NCBI GenBank assembly: GCA_026387175.1
Contig: JAPLME010000008.1
Location: 77,091 to 141,090 of the forward strand
DNA length: 64,000 bases
Source of the DNA: Candidatus Omnitrophota bacterium
Lineage (GTDB): Bacteria > Omnitrophota > Gorgyraeia > 2-01-FULL-45-10
Direction: 5' to 3'
The notes beneath the pieces were generated by a model. It did not search any database. It saw only the letters and a program-made list of their open reading frames with translations, and was not told where the DNA came from. Positions 4,539 to 58,613 of this stretch are shown piece by piece. Each line of letters begins with the position of its first letter. Position 1 is the first letter of the stretch. Both the position numbers and the translations under genes were made by a program.

Positions 4539-5351
4539 ATGGGGAATTATTTGGACAAAATATTTGTTTTTATGATCGGCGCTGGTATTGGCAGCTTCCT
4601 GAACGTTTGCATACACAGGATGCCCAAAGATAAGTCGATAGCATTCCCGCCGTCGCATTGCCCGAAATGCAATAAGGGCCTTTATTGGTATGACAATATC
4701 CCTCTCTTTAGCTATGTGATCCTTCTGGGGCGGTGCAGGTTCTGCCGGCAGAGGATATCGTTACGATATCCGGTAGTAGAGCTCGCTACGGCGCTCATCC
4801 TGACTGTGTTATTTGTCATATTCGGCATGACTTCAAAATTCTTCGCGTATTCGACTATGGCATGCGCCCTCATAGTGGCGACGTTCGTGGACTTCGAGAT
4901 CCAGGAGATACCCGACCAGGTTTCGTTAGGCGGCCTCGCGGCGGGCATAGCGCTCTCTTTTCTGTTTCCTTCGATCATGGACTCGGTAAGCAGGATGCAC
5001 GCTCTTGCGGGTTCGCTTGCCGGTGCCCTTACTGGAGGCGGCAGTATATTTATCCTGAAAATATTCGGCACCCTTGTGTTCAAAAATAAGATCAAAGAAC
5101 TCGGTATCGGGAGCGCGATGGGCGATGGGGATATCAAGCTGATGGCCATGATAGGGGCATTTTTAGGATGGAAGCTTGTCTTGTTGACATTTTTTATAGC
5201 GCCTTTTTTGGGTTCCGTGCCCGGGATTATTTCAAAGATCAGGAGCGGTTCCGAAACCATTCCCTATGGGCCGTTCCTTTCGATGGCGGCCATGATATCG
5301 GTTTTTTTCGGCAATAAAATTTTAAGTATGTTTTCATACGGTCTTTTTTAA
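4539..5351 (+). CDS. pilD: type IV prepilin leader peptidase (A24 family)
   Basis: 270 aa. It has the N-terminal tetracysteine (CPKC...CRFC), a polytopic membrane profile and the GDGDIKLMAMIGAFLGW motif. Confidence 0.8.
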   Translation: MGNYLDKIFVFMIGAGIGSFLNVCIHRMPKDKSIAFPPSHCPKCNKGLYWYDNIPLFSYVILLGRCRFCRQRISLRYPVVELATALILTVLFVIFGMTSKFFAYSTMACALIVATFVDFEIQEIPDQVSLGGLAAGIALSFLFPSIMDSVSRMHALAGSLAGALTGGGSIFILKIFGTLVFKNKIKELGIGSAMGDGDIKLMAMIGAFLGWKLVLLTFFIAPFLGSVPGIISKIRSGSETIPYGPFLSMAAMISVFFGNKILSMFSYGLF

Positions 5352-5373
5352 AAGAAAAAGAAAGAGAGGCTTT

Positions 5374-6498
5374 ATGCTCAGATATTTGACAAGCGGTGAA
5401 TCTCACGGGAAAGCTATGATGGCGATACTGGATGGCATGCCCTCGGGCCTTCGCATTGAGGAGTCGGCGATCAATAACGACCTCTCCCGCCGCATGCGCG
5501 GTTATGGCAGGGGAAGACGGATGAAGATAGAGGCCGATAAAGTGCAGATACTCTCGGGCCTGAGGAAGTCGGTCACGATCGGAAGCCCGATCGCGCTAAT
5601 TGTGAATAATGTCGACCACTCCATAGATAAGCTGCCGGCCGTTCTATGTCCGCGGCCGGGGCACGCTGATCTATCAGGCGCTCTTAAATACGATCTGAGG
5701 GATATGAGAAGCGTATTGGAGCGCGCCAGCGCCCGAGAGACCGTAGTAAGGGTCGCTGTCGGGGCCCTTGCGAAAACGCTCTTATCGGAATTCAAGATCG
5801 ATATCGCGAGCCATGTCACTGTTATAGGCGGCGTAGAAGCCGAGACAAAAGACCTGGGCTTTAATCATCTCGTCTCGATTTCGGAGAAGTCGCCTGTCCG
5901 TTGCGCCGATCCCGATGCATCAAAGCTGATGTGCGCCGAGATAGAGGACGCTATGGAAGAAGGCGATACGCTCGGGGGGGTGTTTGAGGTAATTGCAAGA
6001 GGAGTTCCTGTTGGGCTCGGCAGTTATACGCAGTGGGACAAACGCATAGGTTCGCGTATAGCTTCCGCCATTATGTCTATCCAGGCCGTCAAAGGCGTCG
6101 GTTTCGGCGCCGGCTTCGAGATGGCGCATCTCAGGGGTTCACTGATACATGACGAGATATTCTACGACAAAAGAAGGGGTTTCTTCAGGACGACTAATAA
6201 CGCCGGCGGCATAGAGGGCGGCATGACGACAGGCGAGGCTATCGTGGTTAGGGCCGTCATGAAACCGATAGCGACACTTTCGACGCCTCTTGAGAGCGTT
6301 AATATAAAGACTAAGAGTCCGGTGAAGGCGAGTGTCCAGCGGTCGGATGTATGTGCGGTTCCCGCGGCGGGCGTGGTCGGAGAAGCGATGGTCGCGATAG
6401 AGCTCGCTAACGCGATGATAGAGAAGTTCGGCGGCGACTCGCTGCGTGAGATGAAGAGGAATTACAACGGCTATCTCGAACAGGTCAAAAAGTTCTAA
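5374..6498 (+). CDS. aroC: chorismate synthase
   Basis: 374 aa. It carries chorismate synthase signatures (GESHGKA, RPGHAD, GRSSARETA-like SARETV). Confidence 0.9.
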   Translation: MLRYLTSGESHGKAMMAILDGMPSGLRIEESAINNDLSRRMRGYGRGRRMKIEADKVQILSGLRKSVTIGSPIALIVNNVDHSIDKLPAVLCPRPGHADLSGALKYDLRDMRSVLERASARETVVRVAVGALAKTLLSEFKIDIASHVTVIGGVEAETKDLGFNHLVSISEKSPVRCADPDASKLMCAEIEDAMEEGDTLGGVFEVIARGVPVGLGSYTQWDKRIGSRIASAIMSIQAVKGVGFGAGFEMAHLRGSLIHDEIFYDKRRGFFRTTNNAGGIEGGMTTGEAIVVRAVMKPIATLSTPLESVNIKTKSPVKASVQRSDVCAVPAAGVVGEAMVAIELANAMIEKFGGDSLREMKRNYNGYLEQVKKF

Positions 6499-6500
6499 CT

Positions 6501-7037
6501 ATGAATATAGTGCTGGTCGGGTTCATGGGAACGGGTAAGACGACGATCGCGATAGAGCTTTCGCACAGGCTCGGCATGAAGTACGTCTCGATCGACGATC
6601 TTATTGAAAAGAAGGAACGCCGCACCATAAACGAGATATTTACGAAGAGCGGAGAGGACTATTTCCGCGATGTCGAGAGCGCTGTCATAAGAGATGCCGT
6701 GTGCATGGACAACCTCGTGATCGATACCGGCGGCGGCGCCGTGATGCGGGACGAGAATGTGGCATATATGAAGTCGAACGGCGTTATCGTATGCCTTACG
6801 GCGGACGCGGATGTGATCATGGAGAGGACCAAGAAATACAAACACCGCCCGCTCCTTAACGTCGAAGACCCGAAGAGGAAGATACGGGATCTGCTTGCCA
6901 GGCGTTCGCCGTATTACGCGAAAGCCGATCATACGATAGATACCGGCAAATTTACAGTGAGACAGGTCATCGATAAGATAGCGGAGATAGCGGAGGCGAG
7001 ATTGAAACGGAGAGAGGGGCCAAAGGATGAATCCTAA
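6501..7037 (+). CDS. aroK: shikimate kinase
   Basis: 178 aa. It has the P-loop MNIVLVGFMGTGKTT and shikimate-kinase spacing. Confidence 0.8.
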   Translation: MNIVLVGFMGTGKTTIAIELSHRLGMKYVSIDDLIEKKERRTINEIFTKSGEDYFRDVESAVIRDAVCMDNLVIDTGGGAVMRDENVAYMKSNGVIVCLTADADVIMERTKKYKHRPLLNVEDPKRKIRDLLARRSPYYAKADHTIDTGKFTVRQVIDKIAEIAEARLKRREGPKDES

Positions 7038-7338
7038 AGCGAGATTATGGATAGGCGCGACGCTTCTTATCGTCATATTGATCAATTATGTCCTGATAGG
7101 CGTGCCACTTATGTCGAAATCGCATTCGATCCAGGGAAAAGCAAAGGCTATTCTTATCAAGCAGGCTAAGTCGACAGGGCTCTTTAATAACTCTGATGAC
7201 GAATATCTCCTCGATATCTTTCGCAAAGAGAAGTCGTCTATAGATACGAAGATAACTATACTGAATGCAGTCGCCGCGACGCTTGCTTTTTTCGCGGCAA
7301 GTTGGACAGTATTCGGGCTGATCTTTAAGAGGAAGTGA
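7027..7338 (+). CDS. small hypothetical membrane protein (two predicted TM helices)
   Basis: 103 aa with hydrophobic N- and C-terminal segments. It overlaps the aroK stop by 11 nt. No recognisable motif. Confidence 0.4.
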   Translation: MNPKARLWIGATLLIVILINYVLIGVPLMSKSHSIQGKAKAILIKQAKSTGLFNNSDDEYLLDIFRKEKSSIDTKITILNAVAATLAFFAASWTVFGLIFKRK

Positions 7339-10278: not shown

Positions 10279-11151
10279 ATGCAGAGGTATATAGATAAGT
10301 TCATGAATTATCTGAAGGTCGAAAAGAATGCCTCGGAGCATACTATTATAAACTATACTATCGACCTGAATGTCTTTAAGGCCTTTCTCGGCGATAAAGA
10401 GATCGAAACGGTGGACCATCTGGCCTTGCGCCGTTATCTGGCGGAACTTCGAGCGAAGAATTATTCAAAGAGGACCGTCGCCAGAAAACTCGCTTCCTTG
10501 AGAAGCTTTTTCAGGTTTCTCTTCCGTGAAGGGCATATAAAAAAGAACCCTATAACCGCCGTCCTGACACCAAAGCTTGACAAGAAATTGCCGGTATTTC
10601 TGGACACAGCAAAGATAGATAGGCTTCTTTCTGCGCCTACGGATAAGGATCTTGCGGGCTTAAGAGACCGGGCGTTATTGGAGACATTATATTCGACCGG
10701 AATCCGCGTCAGCGAGCTGGTGGGTCTTGATCTCAGCGATATAGATTTTATAAGCGGAGTCATAAAGGTGCTCGGTAAGGGCCATAAGGAGCGGGTTGTA
10801 CCCATAGGGGAACCGGCATTGGCTGCTATAAGAAAGTATGTCGATAAGAAGGCCGATGAGAAGGTTAATGACAAGGATGCCGTATTCTTGAATAAATCCG
10901 GCGGCCGCCTCACGGATCGAAGCGTCAGGCGGGTATTGGATAAACATATTAAGACGTGCAGCATATCCGAAAAAATATCGCCGCATTCGCTCAGGCATTC
11001 CTTTGCGACCCATCTCTTAGATCGCGGCGCGGACCTGAGGAGCGTTCAGGAGCTTCTGGGCCACATGAACCTGTCGACGACGCAGATATATACGCATGTT
11101 ACGATGGAGCGGCTTAAGTCGGTATACGATAAAGCCCACCCACGGGCGTAG
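10279..11151 (+). CDS. tyrosine site-specific recombinase, XerC/XerD family
   Basis: 290 aa. It carries the R...HxxR...Y catalytic pattern (HSLRHSFATHLL...LGHMNLSTTQIYTHV). XerC versus XerD cannot be decided by eye. Confidence 0.75.
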   Translation: MQRYIDKFMNYLKVEKNASEHTIINYTIDLNVFKAFLGDKEIETVDHLALRRYLAELRAKNYSKRTVARKLASLRSFFRFLFREGHIKKNPITAVLTPKLDKKLPVFLDTAKIDRLLSAPTDKDLAGLRDRALLETLYSTGIRVSELVGLDLSDIDFISGVIKVLGKGHKERVVPIGEPALAAIRKYVDKKADEKVNDKDAVFLNKSGGRLTDRSVRRVLDKHIKTCSISEKISPHSLRHSFATHLLDRGADLRSVQELLGHMNLSTTQIYTHVTMERLKSVYDKAHPRA

Positions 11152-11435
11152 ATTTTTCGGCTCAAGCGTAAGTCTAGAGCCTTCGGGCACTTGCTTTCGC
11201 TCTTTACGAGCATCCCTCGCGTGGTGGTACTTCGCAGGGACGCAAAATTTCCCCTGCGAGGAAATTTTGCTCGGAAAGATCGCTCGCTCTTTTTGGCATA
11301 CAAGAATACCCGGGCCAAAAATCCGTGCCCGCTCGCGACTTTCGACGCCCTGCTTAGCACCACCCCGCGAGGGATAGCTGAGTAGCAGCGAAAGTATCGC
11401 CCGAAGGCTCTACTATTCGAGTGAGCCGAAAAATC
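11151..11435. repeat. 285-bp imperfect palindromic (long-hairpin) intergenic element, possible MITE or structured RNA
   Basis: The ends are perfect reverse complements. gatttttcggctca (11151-11164) pairs with tgagccgaaaaatc (11422-11435), and inside that tagagccttcgggc pairs with gcccgaaggctcta. Further inner arm pairs include atccctcgcg.ggtggt. The centre contains local hairpins (gcaaaatttcc...ggaaattttgc; tttttggc...gccaaaaa). Confidence 0.6.
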
Positions 11436-11528
11436 TCCTGGCGGAGTAAGTAGAGAGTGAGATTGGAGCAGTGACCTGTAATCAGGTCTAGGCAGGCGGG
11501 GGCCAGTAAAAACCTAACGAAAGAGGGC

Positions 11529-12794
11529 ATGTTATACGATATAGCGTTTTTCATATTCGCGGTGTTTTATATACCGACTTTGATATTTAAGGGGAAGCTG
11601 CATAAAGATTTCCTCGAGCGGTTCGGTGTCTACAGTGATGTCCAGAAGGAAGCTCTCTGGCGCGCGAAAGATGTTGTATGGATACAGGCGGTGAGCGTGG
11701 GAGAGGTCGCGCTCTGCAAGAGTTTTATTCCGGCGCTTAAAAAGGAATTTCCCGCAAAATCGATAGTCTTGTCCACGATAACAAGGACCGGCAATGATCT
11801 TGCGAAGAAACTTTTCTCAGGCGATGCCGTTATAATCTATTTTCCGCTCGATTACTCGTTCATAGTAAAGAGAGTCGTAAATAGGATACATCCAAAACTC
11901 TATATAATGATAGAGACCGAGATATGGCCGAATGTATTGAAGGAACTGCATTATAAACATGTGCCGGCGATTTTGATCAACGGCAGGATTTCGGACCGCT
12001 CTTTTGGAAAGTATAAACTTGTAAGAATATTTTTATCCGATACGCTCGATAGGATAAACTCATTCTGTATGCAGTCGGATATCGATGCCGAAAGGATAAG
12101 ATGCCTGGGCGCCGCGCCCGATAGAGTTAAGGTCACCGGCAATATGAAATTCGACGCGGATATTATGTTGAATAGCGCTCACGACGCGGATATTAAAGAA
12201 TTATTCGCCCTGAAAGACGGTGACGAGGTCTTCGTCGCGGGTTCGACTCACGGCGGCGAGGAGGAGACGGTGGTATCGGTATACAGGGAGCTCATAAAAG
12301 ACTTCCCGAAGCTAAAACTTGTGATAGCCCCCCGCCATATCGAAAGGGCGACTGAGGTTGAGAATATCGTAAAACGCTCCGGCCTGGACGTGGTGAGAAT
12401 GACGAAGAAGCAGGGTAGTTCTACGCCTCGCGTTTATGTTATTGACGCGATCGGCCATCTGAATGACGCCTATTCCATGGCCGAGATCGTTTTTATCGGA
12501 GGAAGCCTTATTTCTCACGGAGGGCAGAACCCTATAGAGCCGGCGCTTTTCGGGAAACCGGTGATATTCGGCCCTTATATGTTTAACTTTAAGGCCATCG
12601 CATCCGCTCTGCTGAAGAATAAAGGCGCCATCCAGGTTAAGGACCGGAAAGAGTTGCTTATGAAAGCCGATTATCTTTTGAAGAACAAAGATGCGAGGAC
12701 GGCTCTCGGCAATAATGCCAGGAACACAATATACGAAAACCGCGGCGCGGCCTCGCGGAACCTCGAAGCCGTTAAAGAGCTTGTGAATGGTTAA
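11529..12794 (+). CDS. waaA: 3-deoxy-D-manno-octulosonic acid (Kdo) transferase
   Basis: 421 aa with an N-terminal membrane anchor and the motif VWIQAVSVGE typical of KdtA/WaaA. Confidence 0.85.
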   Translation: MLYDIAFFIFAVFYIPTLIFKGKLHKDFLERFGVYSDVQKEALWRAKDVVWIQAVSVGEVALCKSFIPALKKEFPAKSIVLSTITRTGNDLAKKLFSGDAVIIYFPLDYSFIVKRVVNRIHPKLYIMIETEIWPNVLKELHYKHVPAILINGRISDRSFGKYKLVRIFLSDTLDRINSFCMQSDIDAERIRCLGAAPDRVKVTGNMKFDADIMLNSAHDADIKELFALKDGDEVFVAGSTHGGEEETVVSVYRELIKDFPKLKLVIAPRHIERATEVENIVKRSGLDVVRMTKKQGSSTPRVYVIDAIGHLNDAYSMAEIVFIGGSLISHGGQNPIEPALFGKPVIFGPYMFNFKAIASALLKNKGAIQVKDRKELLMKADYLLKNKDARTALGNNARNTIYENRGAASRNLEAVKELVNG

Positions 12795-13824
12795 GTTTAT
12801 ATATTCATTGATGACGGACAAAAGGCGCGGCGTGGTATGGGTGCCCTTTAAAGCGGCGCTATACCTGTTGTCTATTATTTATGGAATTGCTATCTTCTGT
12901 AGAAAGATATTATACGGGTTAAAAATATTTAAGGCGCACAGGGTCTCCCTTAAGGTAGTCAGCGTCGGCAACCTTACGCTCGGCGGCACCGGTAAGACGC
13001 CTTTTACGATAGCCCTCGCAGGGCTGTTGGAAGATGAGTTGCGTTCCTCGGCGGCCGTTCTGATCCGCGGTTATGGCTGGGATGAGCAGGCGCTTCTCAA
13101 GAAAAACCTGCCCGATACGCCGATACTTGTAGGAGAGGATCGCGTTAAATCGGCGCATAAAGCGATAAGGCTCTACGGCAGCCAGTTTGCCGTCCTGGAT
13201 GACGGTTTTCAGCACTGGGAGATCAAGCAGGACCTCGATATCGTGCTGGTCGATTCAAGGAACCCATTCGGGAATAATCGTCTCTTCCCGCGCGGAGTTC
13301 TTAGGGAACCCAAGAACGCTTTAAAGAGGGCACAGGTGGTAGTATTTACCAAGGTAAATAAGAAGGCCGCCGGTCTGGATATCCTCAAAGACGAGATAAA
13401 GAAGATAAACGGGGATATTATTTTTCTGGAGGCCTCTCACAGGCCCTCGCATATATATGATCCGAAGGCTCGGAAGGATCGCGGATTATCATTCGTATCC
13501 GGCAAGAGGGTGGCCTTAGTGTCCGGCATAGGCGACCCCGCGTATTTTGAAGAGACGGTGAAGGACCTCGGAGCGGTGGTCCTTGACCATATGATATTCG
13601 GCGATCATTACAATTTTAAAGAAAAAGATATAGAGCAGATTATAAAAATGTGCGGCGTGAAGACGCCCGATTTCCTGATAACGACCGAGAAGGACGCGGT
13701 GAAGTTCGCGCGTATGAGCTACTCGTTCGGAAAATACACAATGATGACGCTTGCTATCCGTATGGATATAACTAGCGGCAGGGAGCAATTAATTGATAGA
13801 CTTCGCAGCGTACGTATTAGTTAG
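12787..13824 (+). CDS. lpxK: tetraacyldisaccharide 4'-kinase
   Basis: 345 aa. It has the LpxK P-loop VSVGNLTLGGTGKTP. Confidence 0.85.
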   Translation: MVKFIYSLMTDKRRGVVWVPFKAALYLLSIIYGIAIFCRKILYGLKIFKAHRVSLKVVSVGNLTLGGTGKTPFTIALAGLLEDELRSSAAVLIRGYGWDEQALLKKNLPDTPILVGEDRVKSAHKAIRLYGSQFAVLDDGFQHWEIKQDLDIVLVDSRNPFGNNRLFPRGVLREPKNALKRAQVVVFTKVNKKAAGLDILKDEIKKINGDIIFLEASHRPSHIYDPKARKDRGLSFVSGKRVALVSGIGDPAYFEETVKDLGAVVLDHMIFGDHYNFKEKDIEQIIKMCGVKTPDFLITTEKDAVKFARMSYSFGKYTMMTLAIRMDITSGREQLIDRLRSVRIS

Positions 13825-15733
13825 GGCCTTAAACGTAATTTTCAGTGTCTTGCCCGTGAGTTTTGCCTTATGGCTCGGGCGCCGCTTAGGAATAGTTGCC
13901 TTCTGGGTCAATAAGAAGAGAAGATTGATAGCTTACGCGAATTTGAAAGCGGCGTTCGCGCATGAGAAATCTCCCCGGGAGCTTCGCGCTATAACCAAGC
14001 GTGTGTATCAGAATATGGTTCAGACTTTCATGGAAGTGTTGAACCTTACCAAAATAAATAAAAAGTATGTCGACAAATATATCGATATCGTCAACATCGA
14101 ACGCATACAAAATGCCGCGCAGTCGGGGAGAGGCACGATCCTGCTCACTGCGCATTTTGGCGACTGGGAACTCTCCAGCCTGGTGAGTTCCGCTGTCGGA
14201 TTTCCCATCGCGGTCCTTGTGCGCGAGCAGAAGATGAAACGTTTAAACGAACTGCTGAACCGTTTAAGGGAGTCGAATGGCTGTAAGGTGATAAGGAAAG
14301 GGATGGATGTAAAGAACCTCATAACGATGCTCAGAGAAAAGAAGATCGTGGGGATACTCGCCGATCAGGATGCCGGCAGGAACGGTACGCTGGTGGACTT
14401 CTTTGGCCGCCCCACATCATCTCATTCGGGATCGATGGAGATAGCGAGGCGCACAGATTCCATGGTACTGCCCGCGTTCATAGTGCGCACTAAGGGGCCG
14501 TACCATAAACTTTATCTCGAAGAATATATCGATTTCAGAAATACGCAGTCGCCGGATGCGGTAAAAGAGAATCTTCAGAAGTATATGAAGCTGCTCGAAA
14601 GATATGTGAGAGAATATCCCGATCAATGGTTGTGGCTTCATAAGAGATGGAAGTCCACGCCCGTCAGGACTGTACTGGTCCTGAGCGATGGCAAAGCGGG
14701 CCATCTCAACCAATCGCTTGCGATAGCGCGCCAGATACAGAAGGTCAGGATCACCCAGGGCTACAAAGAGGCGGACACAAGGATCGTAACCGTCGATGTT
14801 AAATATAAGAGTAAGTTTACCAGGGCAGTGCTTACCGCGGCCGCTAAATTCGCTACCTGGAGATGCCATGGCCTGATGAAGTGTATGAAGGCCTGTCTGG
14901 AGAAAGGGTCGTACGATACACTGATGAGGACATATTCAGAATATGTCGTCTCCTGCGGTTCCGTGACGGCCCCCGTAAATGTCTTTATGGCGAAGGAGAA
15001 TAACGCGGAAAATATCACAATAATGAAGCCCAGCATTATAAATTTAAGGCAATTCAGCCTTGCGATCATTCCGAAACACGATAAGCCGCCCTTAAAGAAA
15101 AATGTCGTGACGACAACGCTTGCCCCGAACCTGATAGACCGTGACAGTATGCGTGAATACGGCGCGCGGCTTAAGGATCAGGTGAATATTGAAAAGAACA
15201 TTGTGCTGGGAGCCCTGATTGGCGGCAGCAATCCTGAATTCACGATGACTAAAGATATGGCAAATAAAGCGATCTCGGGGCTTATCGAATTCTGCAAAGC
15301 CTATGACGCGGACCTTCTGCTTACGACATCACGGCGCACGCCGAAAGAAGTGGAAACGCTCATAAAGGAGAGGTTAAGCAAATACAGGTTTTGTAAGCTC
15401 ATCGTGATCGCGAATGAGAAGAATATGGAAGGAGCCGTAGCGGGTATACTAGACCTTTCGGATATAGTGACAGTCTCCGGCGAGTCGGTCTCTATGGTTT
15501 CAGAGGCGATACATTCCGGCAAGAAGGTCGTCGTCTTCGATCTCGAAAAGAATAATAAGCGTATCACAAAGTATGAACGTGTCCTGGATTCGCTGGAACG
15601 CGAGGGTTATGTTAACTGCGCGCATCCCGCGGATCTCGGGACGAGGCTCGATAAGGTCTGGAGGACCGTGCGCGCCATCAAGAAAGTCGATGACCGCGAC
15701 AGGACTATTGAGGCGGTCAAAAAATTGCTGTAA
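13793..15733 (+). CDS. fusion of lipid A lauroyl/myristoyl acyltransferase (LpxL/HtrB family) with a C-terminal ELM1/DUF1022-like GT-B-fold domain
   Basis: The N-terminal ~290 aa show the LPLAT HX4D motif (LLTAHFGDWE). The C-terminal ~350 aa begin VLVLSDGKAGHLNQSLAIA, which I recognise as the start of the Mito_fiss_Elm1/DUF1022 family. Confidence 0.6.
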   Translation: MIDFAAYVLVRALNVIFSVLPVSFALWLGRRLGIVAFWVNKKRRLIAYANLKAAFAHEKSPRELRAITKRVYQNMVQTFMEVLNLTKINKKYVDKYIDIVNIERIQNAAQSGRGTILLTAHFGDWELSSLVSSAVGFPIAVLVREQKMKRLNELLNRLRESNGCKVIRKGMDVKNLITMLREKKIVGILADQDAGRNGTLVDFFGRPTSSHSGSMEIARRTDSMVLPAFIVRTKGPYHKLYLEEYIDFRNTQSPDAVKENLQKYMKLLERYVREYPDQWLWLHKRWKSTPVRTVLVLSDGKAGHLNQSLAIARQIQKVRITQGYKEADTRIVTVDVKYKSKFTRAVLTAAAKFATWRCHGLMKCMKACLEKGSYDTLMRTYSEYVVSCGSVTAPVNVFMAKENNAENITIMKPSIINLRQFSLAIIPKHDKPPLKKNVVTTTLAPNLIDRDSMREYGARLKDQVNIEKNIVLGALIGGSNPEFTMTKDMANKAISGLIEFCKAYDADLLLTTSRRTPKEVETLIKERLSKYRFCKLIVIANEKNMEGAVAGILDLSDIVTVSGESVSMVSEAIHSGKKVVVFDLEKNNKRITKYERVLDSLEREGYVNCAHPADLGTRLDKVWRTVRAIKKVDDRDRTIEAVKKLL

Positions 15734-15772
15734 ATTTTTCAATCCACGAAGAAATAATTTGAAAACAAACTT

Positions 15773-24102: not shown

Positions 24103-24226
24103 GGCGAAAATATCTCTCCAGCTATCGTCGGATGGCGGAACTTTCGGGCGATGCTGGAGCGAGCGGCAAGCGGAAGCATTGCCCGAAAGTAAACGCCGGA
24201 CTGTAATATATAGATGATATTTTCGC
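24103..24226 (+). repeat. copy A of a small terminal-inverted-repeat element with a conserved internal hairpin
   Basis: The ends ggcgaaaatatc (24103) and gatattttcgc (24216-24226) are reverse complements. An internal 15-bp stem, actttcgggcgatgc (24140-24155) with gcattgcccgaaagt (24176-24190), closes a 20-nt loop. A near-identical copy lies at 53524-53733. Confidence 0.6.
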
Positions 24227-24241
24227 TGTAGTGGATAGCAT

Positions 24242-24271
24242 TTGACGTCGTTATCGCGCATATGTTAGAAT
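24242..24271 (+). promoter_or_regulatory. candidate sigma70-type promoter for the 24300 gene
   Basis: ttgacg (24242-24247), an 18-nt spacer, then tagaat (24266-24271). An SD (gaggaag) precedes the ATG at 24300. Confidence 0.3.
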
Positions 24272-24299
24272 AACGCAGATTTCGAGAGGAAGACCTATT

Positions 24300-29315: not shown

Positions 29316-29364
29316 TATTTTTCCGCTCAAGCGGTTACTATAGCGCATCCAAGGATGGGGGAGG

Positions 29365-53500: not shown

Positions 53501-53523
53501 ATTTTTAAGGACGAGAGAGGGTA

Positions 53524-53733
53524 GGCGAAAATATCTCTTCTGTATCGTCAGATGGCGGAACTTTCGGGCGATGCTGGAGCGACTTTCTGAAATTCCGATA
53601 CCTATAGGCGGTTTAGGCTTCACCATCGGAATTTTAGCAACAGCGAGCGAGGAAGCCTATTCCGAGCGAGCGGCAAGCGGAAGCATTGACCGAAAGTAAA
53701 CGCCGGATTGAGGTGCTTATAAGATATTTTCGC
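53524..53733 (+). repeat. copy B of the terminal-inverted-repeat element, carrying a nested 87-bp insertion
   Basis: It shares ggcgaaaatatctct...gatggcggaactttcgggcgatgctggagcga and gcggcaagcggaagcattg.ccgaaagtaaacgccgga...gatattttcgc with copy A. An 87-bp insert (53583-53669) is flanked by a gagcga duplication and carries its own inverted repeat (aaattccgat...atcggaatttt). Confidence 0.6.
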
Positions 53734-53752
53734 ATTAACGAAGGAGGATGAT

Positions 53753-56708: not shown

Positions 56709-58613
56709 ATGCACGGCGTTACATTGTTTACCGAATACGATATCCATCTATTCAGGGAAGGTAGCCACTTCCGTCTTCATGAAAAACTTGGATCACATAT
56801 AATGACCGTGAATAAGGTCACAGGCGTATATTTTGCCGTATGGGCGCCTAATGCGGAATACGTATCGGTAGTCGGAGAATTTAACGGGTGGGACACGCAG
56901 TCCCATGCGATGGAAGTCAGGTGGGATGGTTCCGGGATCTGGGAGGCTTTCATCCCCGGTATAGGAAATGGGACCCTTTATAAATATTATATACGATCGA
57001 AATTCAATAATTATACCGTTGAGAAAGGGGACCCATTCGCGCTTCGCTGGGAAACTCCGCCGAAGACCGCCTCGATGGTGTGGGATACTACATATGAATG
57101 GGGCGATCGTTCCTGGTTAGATGAACGCCCAAAGCGTAACGCGCTATCTTCGCCTATATCCGTCTATGAGGTACACCTGGGGTCATGGAGGAGGGTTCCC
57201 GAAGAGGGCAACCGTTCCCTGGCGTATAGAGAGATTGCTCCTCTTCTCGCTGACTATATCAAAGAGATGGGATTCACTCATGTAGAGTTCATGCCCGTCA
57301 TGGAACATCCATTTTACGGTTCTTGGGGATATCAGATAACCGGATTTTTCGCGCCGACTTCCCGTTACGGTACGCCGCAGGATTTCATGTACCTTGTAGA
57401 TTACCTTCACCAAGAGGGGATAGGGGTGATCCTGGACTGGGTGCCTTCGCATTTTCCCGATGACCAGCACGGATTGATATATTTCGACGGCACGCATCTT
57501 TACGAACACGCGGACCCGCGTAAGGCCCTCCAACCCGAATGGAAGAGTTTCATATTTAACTATGGCCGCAACGAAGTCCGCAACTTCCTGGTCTCAAGCG
57601 CGATCTTCTGGTGCGACCGGTATCATGCCGACGGCATTCGCATCGACGCCGTCGCGTCTATGCTCTATCTGGACTATGCCCGGAAAGAGGGCGAATGGAT
57701 ACCTAACCAGTTCGGCGGCCGGGAGAATCTCGAGGCGGTGAGCTTTCTTAAGCATCTGAACGAAAGCGTCTATAAGGAATTTCCTTCCGTGCAGATCATT
57801 GCGGAAGAATCCACTGCCTGGCCGATGGTCACCCGTCCCATATATGACGGAGGCCTGGGGTTCGGCATGAAGTGGAACATGGGATGGATGCACGATATGC
57901 TCGAATATATTTCAAAAGATCCCATATTCCGAAAATACCACCATGGCTTGCTCACGTTCAGTCTCTTGTATGCCTTTACGGAGAATTTCATGCTGCCGTT
58001 ATCTCACGATGAAGTGACGCACGGCAAAGGGTCCCTTCTGAATAAAATACCGGGAGACTTATGGCAGAAATGCGCGGGGCTTCGCCAGCTGCTCGGATAC
58101 ATGTGGACGCATCCGGGAAAGAAGCTTCTCTTCATGGGATGCGAATTCGGCTCTACGGGAGAATGGAACCATGATCAGAGCCTGGACTGGCACATGTTGA
58201 GCGATCCCGGGCATCCGGGTATTCAGCGCTGGATGCGCGATTTGAACCATTTTTATAAGAACGAACCGGCTCTGTATGAGATAGATTTTTCATATGAAGG
58301 GTTCGAATGGGTCGATATAAAAGATTACGAAGAAAGCGTTATCTCTTTCCTCAGGAAAAGCCGCTCCAACCCGGCCGATACGCTCCTCATAGTCTGTAAT
58401 TTTACGCCTGTGCCGCGTTATAATTATCGTGTCGGTGTGCCCGCAGAAGGTTTCTGGAGAGAGGAGCTGAACAGCGATGCTCTGGAATATGGCGGAAGCG
58501 GCCAGGGCAATCTCGGCGGAGTCCTGTCCGAGTCCGTATCCTCCCACGGAAGGAGCCATTCCTTATCATTGATTCTCCCACCGCTTGGAATATTGATATT
58601 TAAAAGAGCATAA
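56709..58613 (+). CDS. glgB: 1,4-alpha-glucan branching enzyme (short form lacking the N1 domain)
   Basis: 634 aa. It has a CBM48-like N-terminus and GH13 regions (DWVPSHF; GIRIDAVASMLY; AEEST; SHDEV). Confidence 0.85.
   Translation: MHGVTLFTEYDIHLFREGSHFRLHEKLGSHIMTVNKVTGVYFAVWAPNAEYVSVVGEFNGWDTQSHAMEVRWDGSGIWEAFIPGIGNGTLYKYYIRSKFNNYTVEKGDPFALRWETPPKTASMVWDTTYEWGDRSWLDERPKRNALSSPISVYEVHLGSWRRVPEEGNRSLAYREIAPLLADYIKEMGFTHVEFMPVMEHPFYGSWGYQITGFFAPTSRYGTPQDFMYLVDYLHQEGIGVILDWVPSHFPDDQHGLIYFDGTHLYEHADPRKALQPEWKSFIFNYGRNEVRNFLVSSAIFWCDRYHADGIRIDAVASMLYLDYARKEGEWIPNQFGGRENLEAVSFLKHLNESVYKEFPSVQIIAEESTAWPMVTRPIYDGGLGFGMKWNMGWMHDMLEYISKDPIFRKYHHGLLTFSLLYAFTENFMLPLSHDEVTHGKGSLLNKIPGDLWQKCAGLRQLLGYMWTHPGKKLLFMGCEFGSTGEWNHDQSLDWHMLSDPGHPGIQRWMRDLNHFYKNEPALYEIDFSYEGFEWVDIKDYEESVISFLRKSRSNPADTLLIVCNFTPVPRYNYRVGVPAEGFWREELNSDALEYGGSGQGNLGGVLSESVSSHGRSHSLSLILPPLGILIFKRA

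Follow-up and report, generated by a model that had tools for sequence, protein, structure and literature searches.

What is the long hairpin that separates the genes xerC and waaA in the 64,000-nucleotide stretch of Candidatus Omnitrophota DNA analysed here (contig JAPLME010000008.1, forward-strand positions 77,091 to 141,090; this whole stretch is called the window, and coordinates count from its first letter)? A first-pass annotation, made from the letters and their open reading frames (ORFs), had described a palindromic element of 285 bp filling this intergenic region and had offered three readings of it: an insertion resembling a miniature inverted-repeat transposable element (MITE) with one copy in the window, a long hairpin RNA recalling 6S RNA, or a terminator and attenuator complex. 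The analysis presented here indicates that the sequence from 11151 to approximately 11510 is probably an inserted, non-autonomous and modular (mosaic) palindromic repeat, similar to MITEs and to repetitive extragenic palindromic (REP) elements, residing in a spacer that in relatives seems to lie within an operon. The repeat family is previously undescribed, although the kind of element is already known, and as far as it was searched for it is limited to a clade of Candidatus Omnitrophota.

The hairpin itself, module A (11151 to 11435, plus strand), is a long imperfect structure of 285 bp whose left arm overlaps the xerC stop codon (TAG, 11149 to 11151), and the element does therefore start at that codon, as had been annotated. 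Its outer closing stem, M1a, is formed by the arms 11150 to 11164 (AGATTTTTCGGCTCA, with the core GATTTTTCGGC) and 11422 to 11436, neither of them assigned to a strand, which are complementary at 15 of 15 positions and thus perfect, as had been reported, and one nucleotide longer than the 14 given before; the right arm is also recognizable in the closing-stem alignment of the copies described below. Repeat finding returned a second perfect block of 14 nt (11175 to 11188 with 11399 to 11412) and a third arm pair of 28 nt with 86% complementarity (11212 to 11239 with 11348 to 11375), which, together with a local hairpin of 11 bp at 11242 to 11270, bear out the second block and the further arm pairs of the first-pass annotation. 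When positions 11145 to 11445 were folded as RNA, the minimum free energy was -156.4 kcal/mol for the plus strand (z -10.6) and -164.4 kcal/mol for the minus strand (z -12.9), none of 100 dinucleotide shuffles folded as stably, and about 106 base pairs are predicted in the rod. Among 13 spacers of the window, that between xerC and waaA is a structural outlier, with a z of -9.3 compared to values from -5.4 to +0.6 in the others; arms, blocks and a fold far beyond chance thus confirm that the hairpin is real. It does not, however, fill the intergenic region: the spacer, which measures 377 bp in the window, reaches 11528, and the inserted unit itself exceeds the palindrome, starting at 11151 and ending no earlier than 11475, probably near 11510, from where native spacer sequence (CTAACGAAAGAGGGC, then ATG) is back. 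None of the ORFs called across A has a significant Pfam match, and the concatenated six-frame translation of A found no match at E<=10 among 5.8 billion proteins, so that gene callers apparently call no ORFs in such elements and it is reasonable to treat the overlapping ORFs as artefacts of the palindrome, as had been suggested.

The evidence that the hairpin was inserted comes from comparison with contigs that carry close XerC homologues (L017 to L026) and with the JGI metagenome contig L014. The xerC-waaA spacer is short and free of A in L024 (18 bp; XerC 94% identical), L026 (40 bp; 91%) and L021 (19 bp; 88%), and this check of the intergenic region in relatives, which had been proposed beforehand, shows A at xerC-waaA to be an insertion that landed between the xerC stop codon and the ribosome-binding site of waaA after the split from relatives with 94% identical XerC. 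Copies of A are present at other loci. L017 (XerC 96%) carries one at 1071 to 1393, 86% identical to the window over 328 bp, between a 103-aa ORF and dprA; the same site holds a copy in L022 (XerC 95%; 430 to 680, directly after the TGA of the ORF) and in L018 (XerC 90%; 1 to 197, termed L018a, the contig starting inside the element), and the corresponding spacer of the window measures 13 bp, indicating that the site is empty there. Family members also occupy the lpxL stop codon in L018 (8700 to 9035, termed L018b) and in L026 (from 6934 on), where the spacer of the window is 39 bp long. In L014, which is unrelated to the window locus, a copy at 5183 to 5486 follows a DeoC-family aldolase gene and shares with the window the same 52-nt left end (50 of 53 positions identical) and about 40 nt of the right end, its core being different. 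Given these copies at other loci and the empty orthologous sites, A is not locus-specific. In total there are about four independent sites of the A type and about four of the B type (see below), which corresponds to a small number of insertion events.

Breaks at a fixed k-mer are typical of repeats in de Bruijn assemblies, and the way in which assemblies end inside A thus speaks for its repeat nature. Among the matches listed, all seven Logan contigs with an identical XerC (7/7, from seven runs) end 49 to 50 nt past the stop codon, at window positions 11200 to 11201. Six contigs with an identical WaaA (from six sequencing runs) start inside A at 11321 to 11393, with sequence identical to the window, and these right-hand contigs always have the core in the window orientation and continue without a break across the position that mirrors the left break point.

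Alignment of the copies discloses a modular anatomy. The closing stem (TTTTCGGC...GCCGAAAA) is paired in all five A-type copies that can be read end to end, its common part being 11-15 bp (GATTTTTCGGC/GCCGAAAAATC), and copies cut by a contig end keep one arm each (the right in L018a, the left in L026). Within it lies module M2, with a left arm at 11175 to 11202 (TAGAGCCTTCGGGC plus ACTTGCTTTCGC) and a right arm at 11385 to 11412 (both without assigned strand), defined by inverted repeats and by alignment, common to L014 and L017 and absent in L022. The inner core M3 (11212 to 11375, plus strand) is a 28-nt stem pair around a three-way junction, which shares about 87% identity with L017, L022 and L018a, displays compensatory pair changes and is not found in L014. 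The window and L017 accordingly contain M2 and M3, L022 and L018a contain M3 without M2, L014 combines M2 with another core, and L018b and L026 have other contents, while the core of L018a holds an extra palindromic insert of 40 nt. Polarity is given to the element by an asymmetric side hairpin of 11 bp (GCAAAATTTCC/GGAAATTTTGC; 11242 to 11270, plus strand), in which pair 96/120 has undergone a compensatory change from GC to AU; L014 bears an analogous hairpin. A is followed by an unpaired, purine-rich tail of about 40 nt (11437 to 11475, plus strand; ..AGTAAGTAGAGAGTGAGATTGGAGCAGTGA), conserved after A in other copies according to the L017 and L022 alignments, and in relatives a second rod, B, then follows, with the closing stem GGCGAAAATATC/GATATTTTCGC and a long fold (z -6.4 and -5.7). 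The full unit consists of rod A, tail and rod B, with B tentatively recognized in the window as a remnant (GGCAGGC..GTAAAAAC; about 11476 to 11510, plus strand), read by eye against the right ends of B in L018b and L022 and against empty sites. Members of the family are non-coding and span 285-620 bp, the A-tail-B unit measuring approximately 360-620 bp, and as judged from the aligned sequences their nested hairpin modules are gained, lost and swapped between copies.

The single copy that had been noted in the window holds for full A-type elements, but the window also contains a solo fragment and two elements of the B type. The latter, which are intact and about 93% identical to each other, lie at 24103 to 24227 (B_24k; plus strand, closed by GGCGAAAATATC/GATATTTTCGC and located in the spacer that separates a ychF-like gene from the ORF after it) and at 53524 to 53734 (B_53k), the second being preceded by an A-remnant plus a tail-like stretch (53501 to 53523), which extends that feature to 53501 to 53734 on the plus strand. 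B_53k corresponds to B_24k enlarged at its apex by 87 bp that contain a hairpin and lie between GAGCGA direct repeats (6 bp), and looks like a nested insertion with target duplication. With at most one mismatch, GGCGAAAATATC has six matches in the window compared to 0.8 expected. The solo fragment (29316 to 29345, plus strand; 30 bp, TATTTTTCCGCTCAAGCGGTTACTATAGCG) resembles the left end of A (TATTTTTCCGCTCAAGCGG..), immediately follows a HAD-hydrolase gene that ends in TAG and may be a deletion remnant. Two spacers considered as further remnants, at 48.3 kb and 54.8 kb, turned out instead to hold small unlisted genes and a promoter-like site. Near-consensus, sigma-70-like promoters were seen by eye just downstream of two members (TTGACG-17-TAGAAT at 24243 to 24272 in the window and TTGCAA-17-TATAAT at 5508 to 5537 in L014), which places B_24k and the L014 copy between a stop codon and the next promoter.

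With regard to the maintenance of the structure, RNAalifold applied to the three complete A copies with a common core predicted 91 pairs, with 96.8% of cells paired compared to 33-51% when the partners were slid, and eight pairs display compensatory double changes, a result reached by one of 500 shuffles. With three sequences, these data are suggestive only of a hairpin that is maintained across copies. Counts of G-U pairs in A reveal no consistent strand bias and both strands fold about equally well, and selection on an RNA is therefore indistinguishable from the upkeep of a DNA palindrome.

The orientation of the element relative to its co-directional flanking genes is identical in every copy whose sequence allows it to be read. 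This applies to the A-type sites at xerC-waaA, between the 103-aa ORF and dprA, between lpxL and a glycosyltransferase gene (L018b) and between the aldolase gene and an ORF for a peptidoglycan-binding protein, as well as to the B-type sites upstream of dprA, upstream of the glycosyltransferase gene and at 24 kb and 53 kb of the window; the element at the lpxL stop of L026 shares only an 11-nt arm of the closing stem, which is the same on either strand, and its orientation is unreadable. As nearly all genes lie on one strand, the directions of transcription and of replication are inseparable here. At several sites the left end abuts or overlaps a stop codon, namely TAG|ATTTTTCGGC in the window and L026, TGA|TTTTTCGGC in L022 and TAA|ATTTTTCGGC in L018b, which may perhaps be the sole position tolerated where spacers measure at most 20 bp. 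The four nucleotides preceding the shared ATTTTTCGGC at the six readable left ends are GTAG, GTAG, TTAG, GTAA, AGTG and GCTG, the left flank of the family always ends in A, usually as T-R-R-A, and the flanks of the elements read TA/TC, CT/AC, TA/TG and GT/TC. When filled and empty sites were compared, a possible imperfect TARA was seen at xerC-waaA and nothing consistent at the other sites. The empty spacer between lpxL and the glycosyltransferase gene in the window (15731 to 15772) reads TAAATTTTTCAATCC and has the ATTTTTC core that flanks the L018/L026 element at this site, which may represent a target core or a footprint, or may be coincidental.

The xerC-waaA junction has also received other sequences. 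L018 (4333 to 4441), L019 (3078 to 3192) and L020 (4071 to 4185), all with 90% XerC identity, carry there another palindrome, about 110 bp long and nearly perfect in its arms (GATTTAGGGGACGTGTCACTTTGGGACACTCCACTTT...), whose sequence is unrelated to A; two unrelated palindromes at one junction imply that it was struck independently by two hairpin elements. In L017, xerC is followed not by waaA but by an ORF of 242 aa with no Pfam match and a RhuM-family gene (5603 to 7241), a region that starts with TAGATTTTTAC, a motif found again at L017 1421, and that may have entered the same hotspot as an island; the 242-aa ORF was considered as a partner enzyme and set aside, as this region appears to be an unrelated island. 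Two contigs with 95% XerC identity, L022 (4728 to 4758) and L023 (889 to 917), stop about 30 nt past the stop codon in ..GAAATTTTTCGATCGAAACAGC, which suggests yet another repeat at this junction, with a ATTTTTCG-type start. The xerC-waaA spacer of L026 (2657 to 2696) consists in part of three direct copies of GTGAAGCG.

Searches for relatives and for a mobilizing partner were largely negative. An exact gapped pattern had no matches in the species representatives of GTDB, a relaxed one gave two chance matches, both inside coding sequence, one in an Acidobacteriota genome and one in a Prevotellaceae genome, three patterns gave none in IMG/VR, and blastn against PLSDB plasmids and INPHARED phages returned no match. 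Pattern scans for a parent insertion sequence (IS) found none in GTDB or IMG/VR, and the JGI metagenome scan yielded L014 only. No RAYT/Y1 family occurs among the Pfam families of the genes listed for the 64-kb window, the additional ~13 kb of this genome and the fetched loci, no TnpA/TnpB gene was found near any copy, and a literature search on Omnitrophota repeats of this sort retrieved nothing relevant. The null genome scans mean that either the family is narrow or the patterns were too strict.

Several observations weigh against an inserted mobile repeat. No unambiguous target-site duplication is visible at three pairs of filled and empty sites, no transposase or partner with the same termini was found, and neither the window nor the fetched loci contain these termini at any other place. 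No true copy came out of the sequence scans of IMG/VR and 185,579 species-representative genomes, and a high copy number in this genome is suggested by the assembly breaks only, a single full A copy being present in about 77 kb of it (the window plus ~13 kb reached by looking up the proteins encoded at the window ends, which held no further copy). Moreover, the three copies upstream of dprA may share one ancestral insertion, leaving about four independent A sites, and arm-to-arm correction can likewise produce compensatory changes in a DNA palindrome when no selection acts on RNA. On the other hand, the family has features of MITEs, i.e. terminal inverted repeats (arms complementary at 15/15 nt), small non-coding elements, and dispersed copies with presence/absence polymorphism. 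The MITE-like reading of the first-pass annotation is thus upheld as regards insertion and dispersal, by the empty sites, the copies elsewhere and the assembly breaks, and not as regards strict MITE membership, as neither a target-site duplication nor a parent IS was found.

Elements of this kind are familiar from Neisseria, enterobacteria, pseudomonads and cyanobacteria. The Correia repeat-enclosed elements (CREE, or NEMIS) of Neisseria measure about 100-155 bp and have a fixed terminal inverted repeat of 26 bp, a conserved core and a TA target duplication. They represent the best functional analogue, being likewise small, non-coding, intergenic, bounded by inverted repeats and polymorphic between close relatives, whereas A has 285 bp, a closing stem of 11-15 bp, variable modules, no visible TA duplication and an unrelated sequence with the termini GATTTTTCGGC... 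CREE are often co-transcribed with their neighbours, and RNase III binds or cleaves their RNA hairpin, which can change how the neighbouring genes are expressed (PMC2649163). REP units measure 20-40 bp, carry an unpaired GTAG or CGTC tag and typically occur in high copy, with pairs folding into larger hairpins (PMC3733652). The present family resembles REP, bacterial interspersed mosaic elements (BIMEs) and REPINs, which are mobilized by RAYT transposases of the Y1 type, in being a palindromic mosaic downstream of coding regions between co-directional genes, plausibly forming RNA hairpins and showing no clear target duplication (PMC3733652); it differs in that its stems are nested over 100-285 bp, in that no RAYT gene was seen, and in that GTAG precedes the element at two sites only, where it is native stop-codon context. 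With ERIC/IRU, RUP, BOX and RPE (PMC2229807) and other stem-loop families (PMC2267715) it has in common imperfect palindromes, an intergenic location that is presumably transcribed, modularity (as in BOX A/B/C), insertion size variants and the lack of coding capacity. Unlike those families it has an unrelated sequence, belongs to another phylum, forms longer rods in a two-rod A-tail-B arrangement and keeps a constant orientation. Insertion of IS200/IS605-type elements is specific for strand and orientation, takes place beside a short target motif, leaves the target unduplicated and depends on DNA hairpins. The family is similar to them in showing no clear target-site duplication, a constant orientation and a left flank ending in A, but those elements carry subterminal hairpins, whereas here a terminal inverted repeat closes the element as a whole.

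Taken together, A would depend for its movement on an enzyme that acts in trans and is encoded at another place. Copies that keep one orientation and show no clear target duplication agree better with a site-specific mechanism, or with a strand-specific one of the single-strand (HUH/Y1-like) type, than with classical DDE cut-and-paste. Since xerC and waaA lie 18-40 bp apart in relatives, they are presumably co-transcribed and A is presumably transcribed within their mRNA, where it would fold into a double-stranded rod of about 106 predicted base pairs. Such a rod would act at most as a site of RNase III-type RNA processing or stability, for which the Correia element is the closest functional precedent, and A would not be a discrete RNA gene. 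An effect on the xerC-waaA transcript is plausible.

A more far-reaching version of this interpretation holds that the A and B rods are an undescribed type of mobile DNA that grows by small palindromic modules inserted at hairpin apices and is moved strand-specifically, without target duplication, to sites abutting stop codons (..T-R-R-A | TTTTTCGGC) perhaps by a single-strand HUH/Y1-type enzyme or by a tyrosine recombinase of the host for which the ATTTTTC core, found in an empty site as well, would be the substrate, the rods perhaps being co-opted by the host as RNA processing or insulator sites between the genes of its very compact genome. We consider this conceivable but improbable.

It is unlikely, too, that A evolved locally as a terminator, attenuator or insulator hairpin between the dprA-topA-xerC unit and the lipopolysaccharide (LPS) operon waaA-lpxK-lpxL. 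Its very stable fold and its exact placement in the gap from a stop codon to the following gene would suit such a function, as would the position of B_24k and the L014 copy between a stop codon and a promoter seen by eye, which is apt for a 3'-end structure. However, close relatives have 18-40 bp and no hairpin at this junction and the same sequence recurs at unrelated junctions, so that an origin as terminator or attenuator at this place, one of the earlier proposals, is not supported. Furthermore, a scan of 11150 to 11528 found no intrinsic terminator with stem and U-tract, and the closing stem of A has a U-run at its 5' side and an A-run at its 3' side, the reverse of the order in intrinsic terminators.

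It is very unlikely that A is a gene whose product is a separate, structured non-coding RNA, be it a rod like that of 6S or some other long hairpin RNA. A fold that resembles a rod and has internal bulges plus a side hairpin, the compensatory base-pair changes, the conserved unpaired tail and the constant orientation relative to flanking genes would agree with it, and 6S RNA (RF00013) is likewise a long imperfect rod. Nevertheless, no match to 6S or to any other of the 4227 families of Rfam 15 was obtained for the element region at E<=10, apart from a 15-bit chance match on a small hairpin, and the search that had been advised earlier thus assigns A to no family. The whole window at gathering thresholds and three related loci gave no family either, and matches to Lambda_thermo (E 4.5) and MIR898 (E 0.95) were dismissed as chance. 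Relatives lack the element at the orthologous locus and carry it elsewhere, at loci that vary, rather than as a conserved single-copy locus as for 6S RNA, and its inner modules are swapped, whereas a functional RNA would keep its core. In addition, both strands fold alike, with no strand asymmetry in G-U pairs, no terminator was found, and a promoter scan of A gave one weak promoter-like site (9/12) and no canonical promoter. The multi-locus, modular element therefore does not support the 6S-type RNA of the first-pass annotation.

An invertible, phase-variable switch, flipped by the adjacent XerC-like recombinase and controlling the LPS genes in the manner of fimS with FimB/FimE, is a highly improbable explanation. 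A tyrosine recombinase gene directly upstream, surface-polysaccharide genes downstream, a segment of about 260 bp bounded by perfect inverted repeats of 14-15 bp and assemblies that break inside A are what such a switch would present. The recombinase is nevertheless the conserved housekeeping XerC of dprA-topA-xerC, other copies are located beside neither recombinase nor LPS genes, and no promoter exists inside A beyond the one weak site (9/12). The six right-hand contigs from six runs are all in the window orientation through the mirror of the left break, and this break, at 11200, lies 12 nt beyond the perfect block, so that crossing-over there would not produce it. Finally, a one-off palindromic spacer without relatives, arisen by chance or by local duplication-inversion, for which the single full copy in the 64-kb window might argue, can be practically discounted, being refuted by homologous copies at no fewer than four other sites (at least four) in relatives and on an unrelated contig.

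The insertion lies in a compact genome that is almost entirely co-directional, as indicated by 56 of 59 ORFs on the plus strand (a greedy, non-overlapping set of the longest ORFs of at least 90 aa) and by spacers mostly shorter than 25 bp; two of the three minus-strand ORFs overlap plus-strand genes and are probably not real. The gene upstream of A (10279 to 11151) encodes an XerC/D-type tyrosine recombinase, for which all named sequences among the nearest 120 homologues belong to Omnitrophota, with dprA and topA further upstream, and A is followed by waaA (11529 to 12794), lpxK and an lpxL-Elm1 fusion. The last (13793 to 15733) is a 646-aa protein with a lipid A acyltransferase domain (PF03279) and an ELM1-like domain (PF06258), and it is conserved in the relatives examined. 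The window also includes an ORF of 1872 aa (39121 to 44739) and, directly after the stop of the gene at 56709 to 58613, a perfect 14-bp inverted repeat with a 20-nt loop (TTGAACCAGCTTCA/TGAAGCTGGTTCAA; 58618 to 58665), a spacer with a z of -5.4 that could be an ordinary terminator-like hairpin.

In conclusion, the 285-bp hairpin, its ORFs and similar spacers in metagenome-assembled genomes of Omnitrophota should be annotated as repeat elements and not as genes or small RNAs. These repeats fragment the short-read assemblies of this clade, contigs ending inside them in every sample examined. For a phylum that is uncultivated and has compact genomes, the finding gives a first view of a repeat family, unsurprising in kind, whose distinguishing features are nested modular rods, a constant orientation, abutment to stop codons and no obvious transposase. 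If A is indeed transcribed in the xerC-waaA message, a predicted rod of about 106 bp would lie directly upstream of a key gene of lipid A/3-deoxy-D-manno-octulosonic acid synthesis and would offer a natural case of operon processing of the RNase III type.

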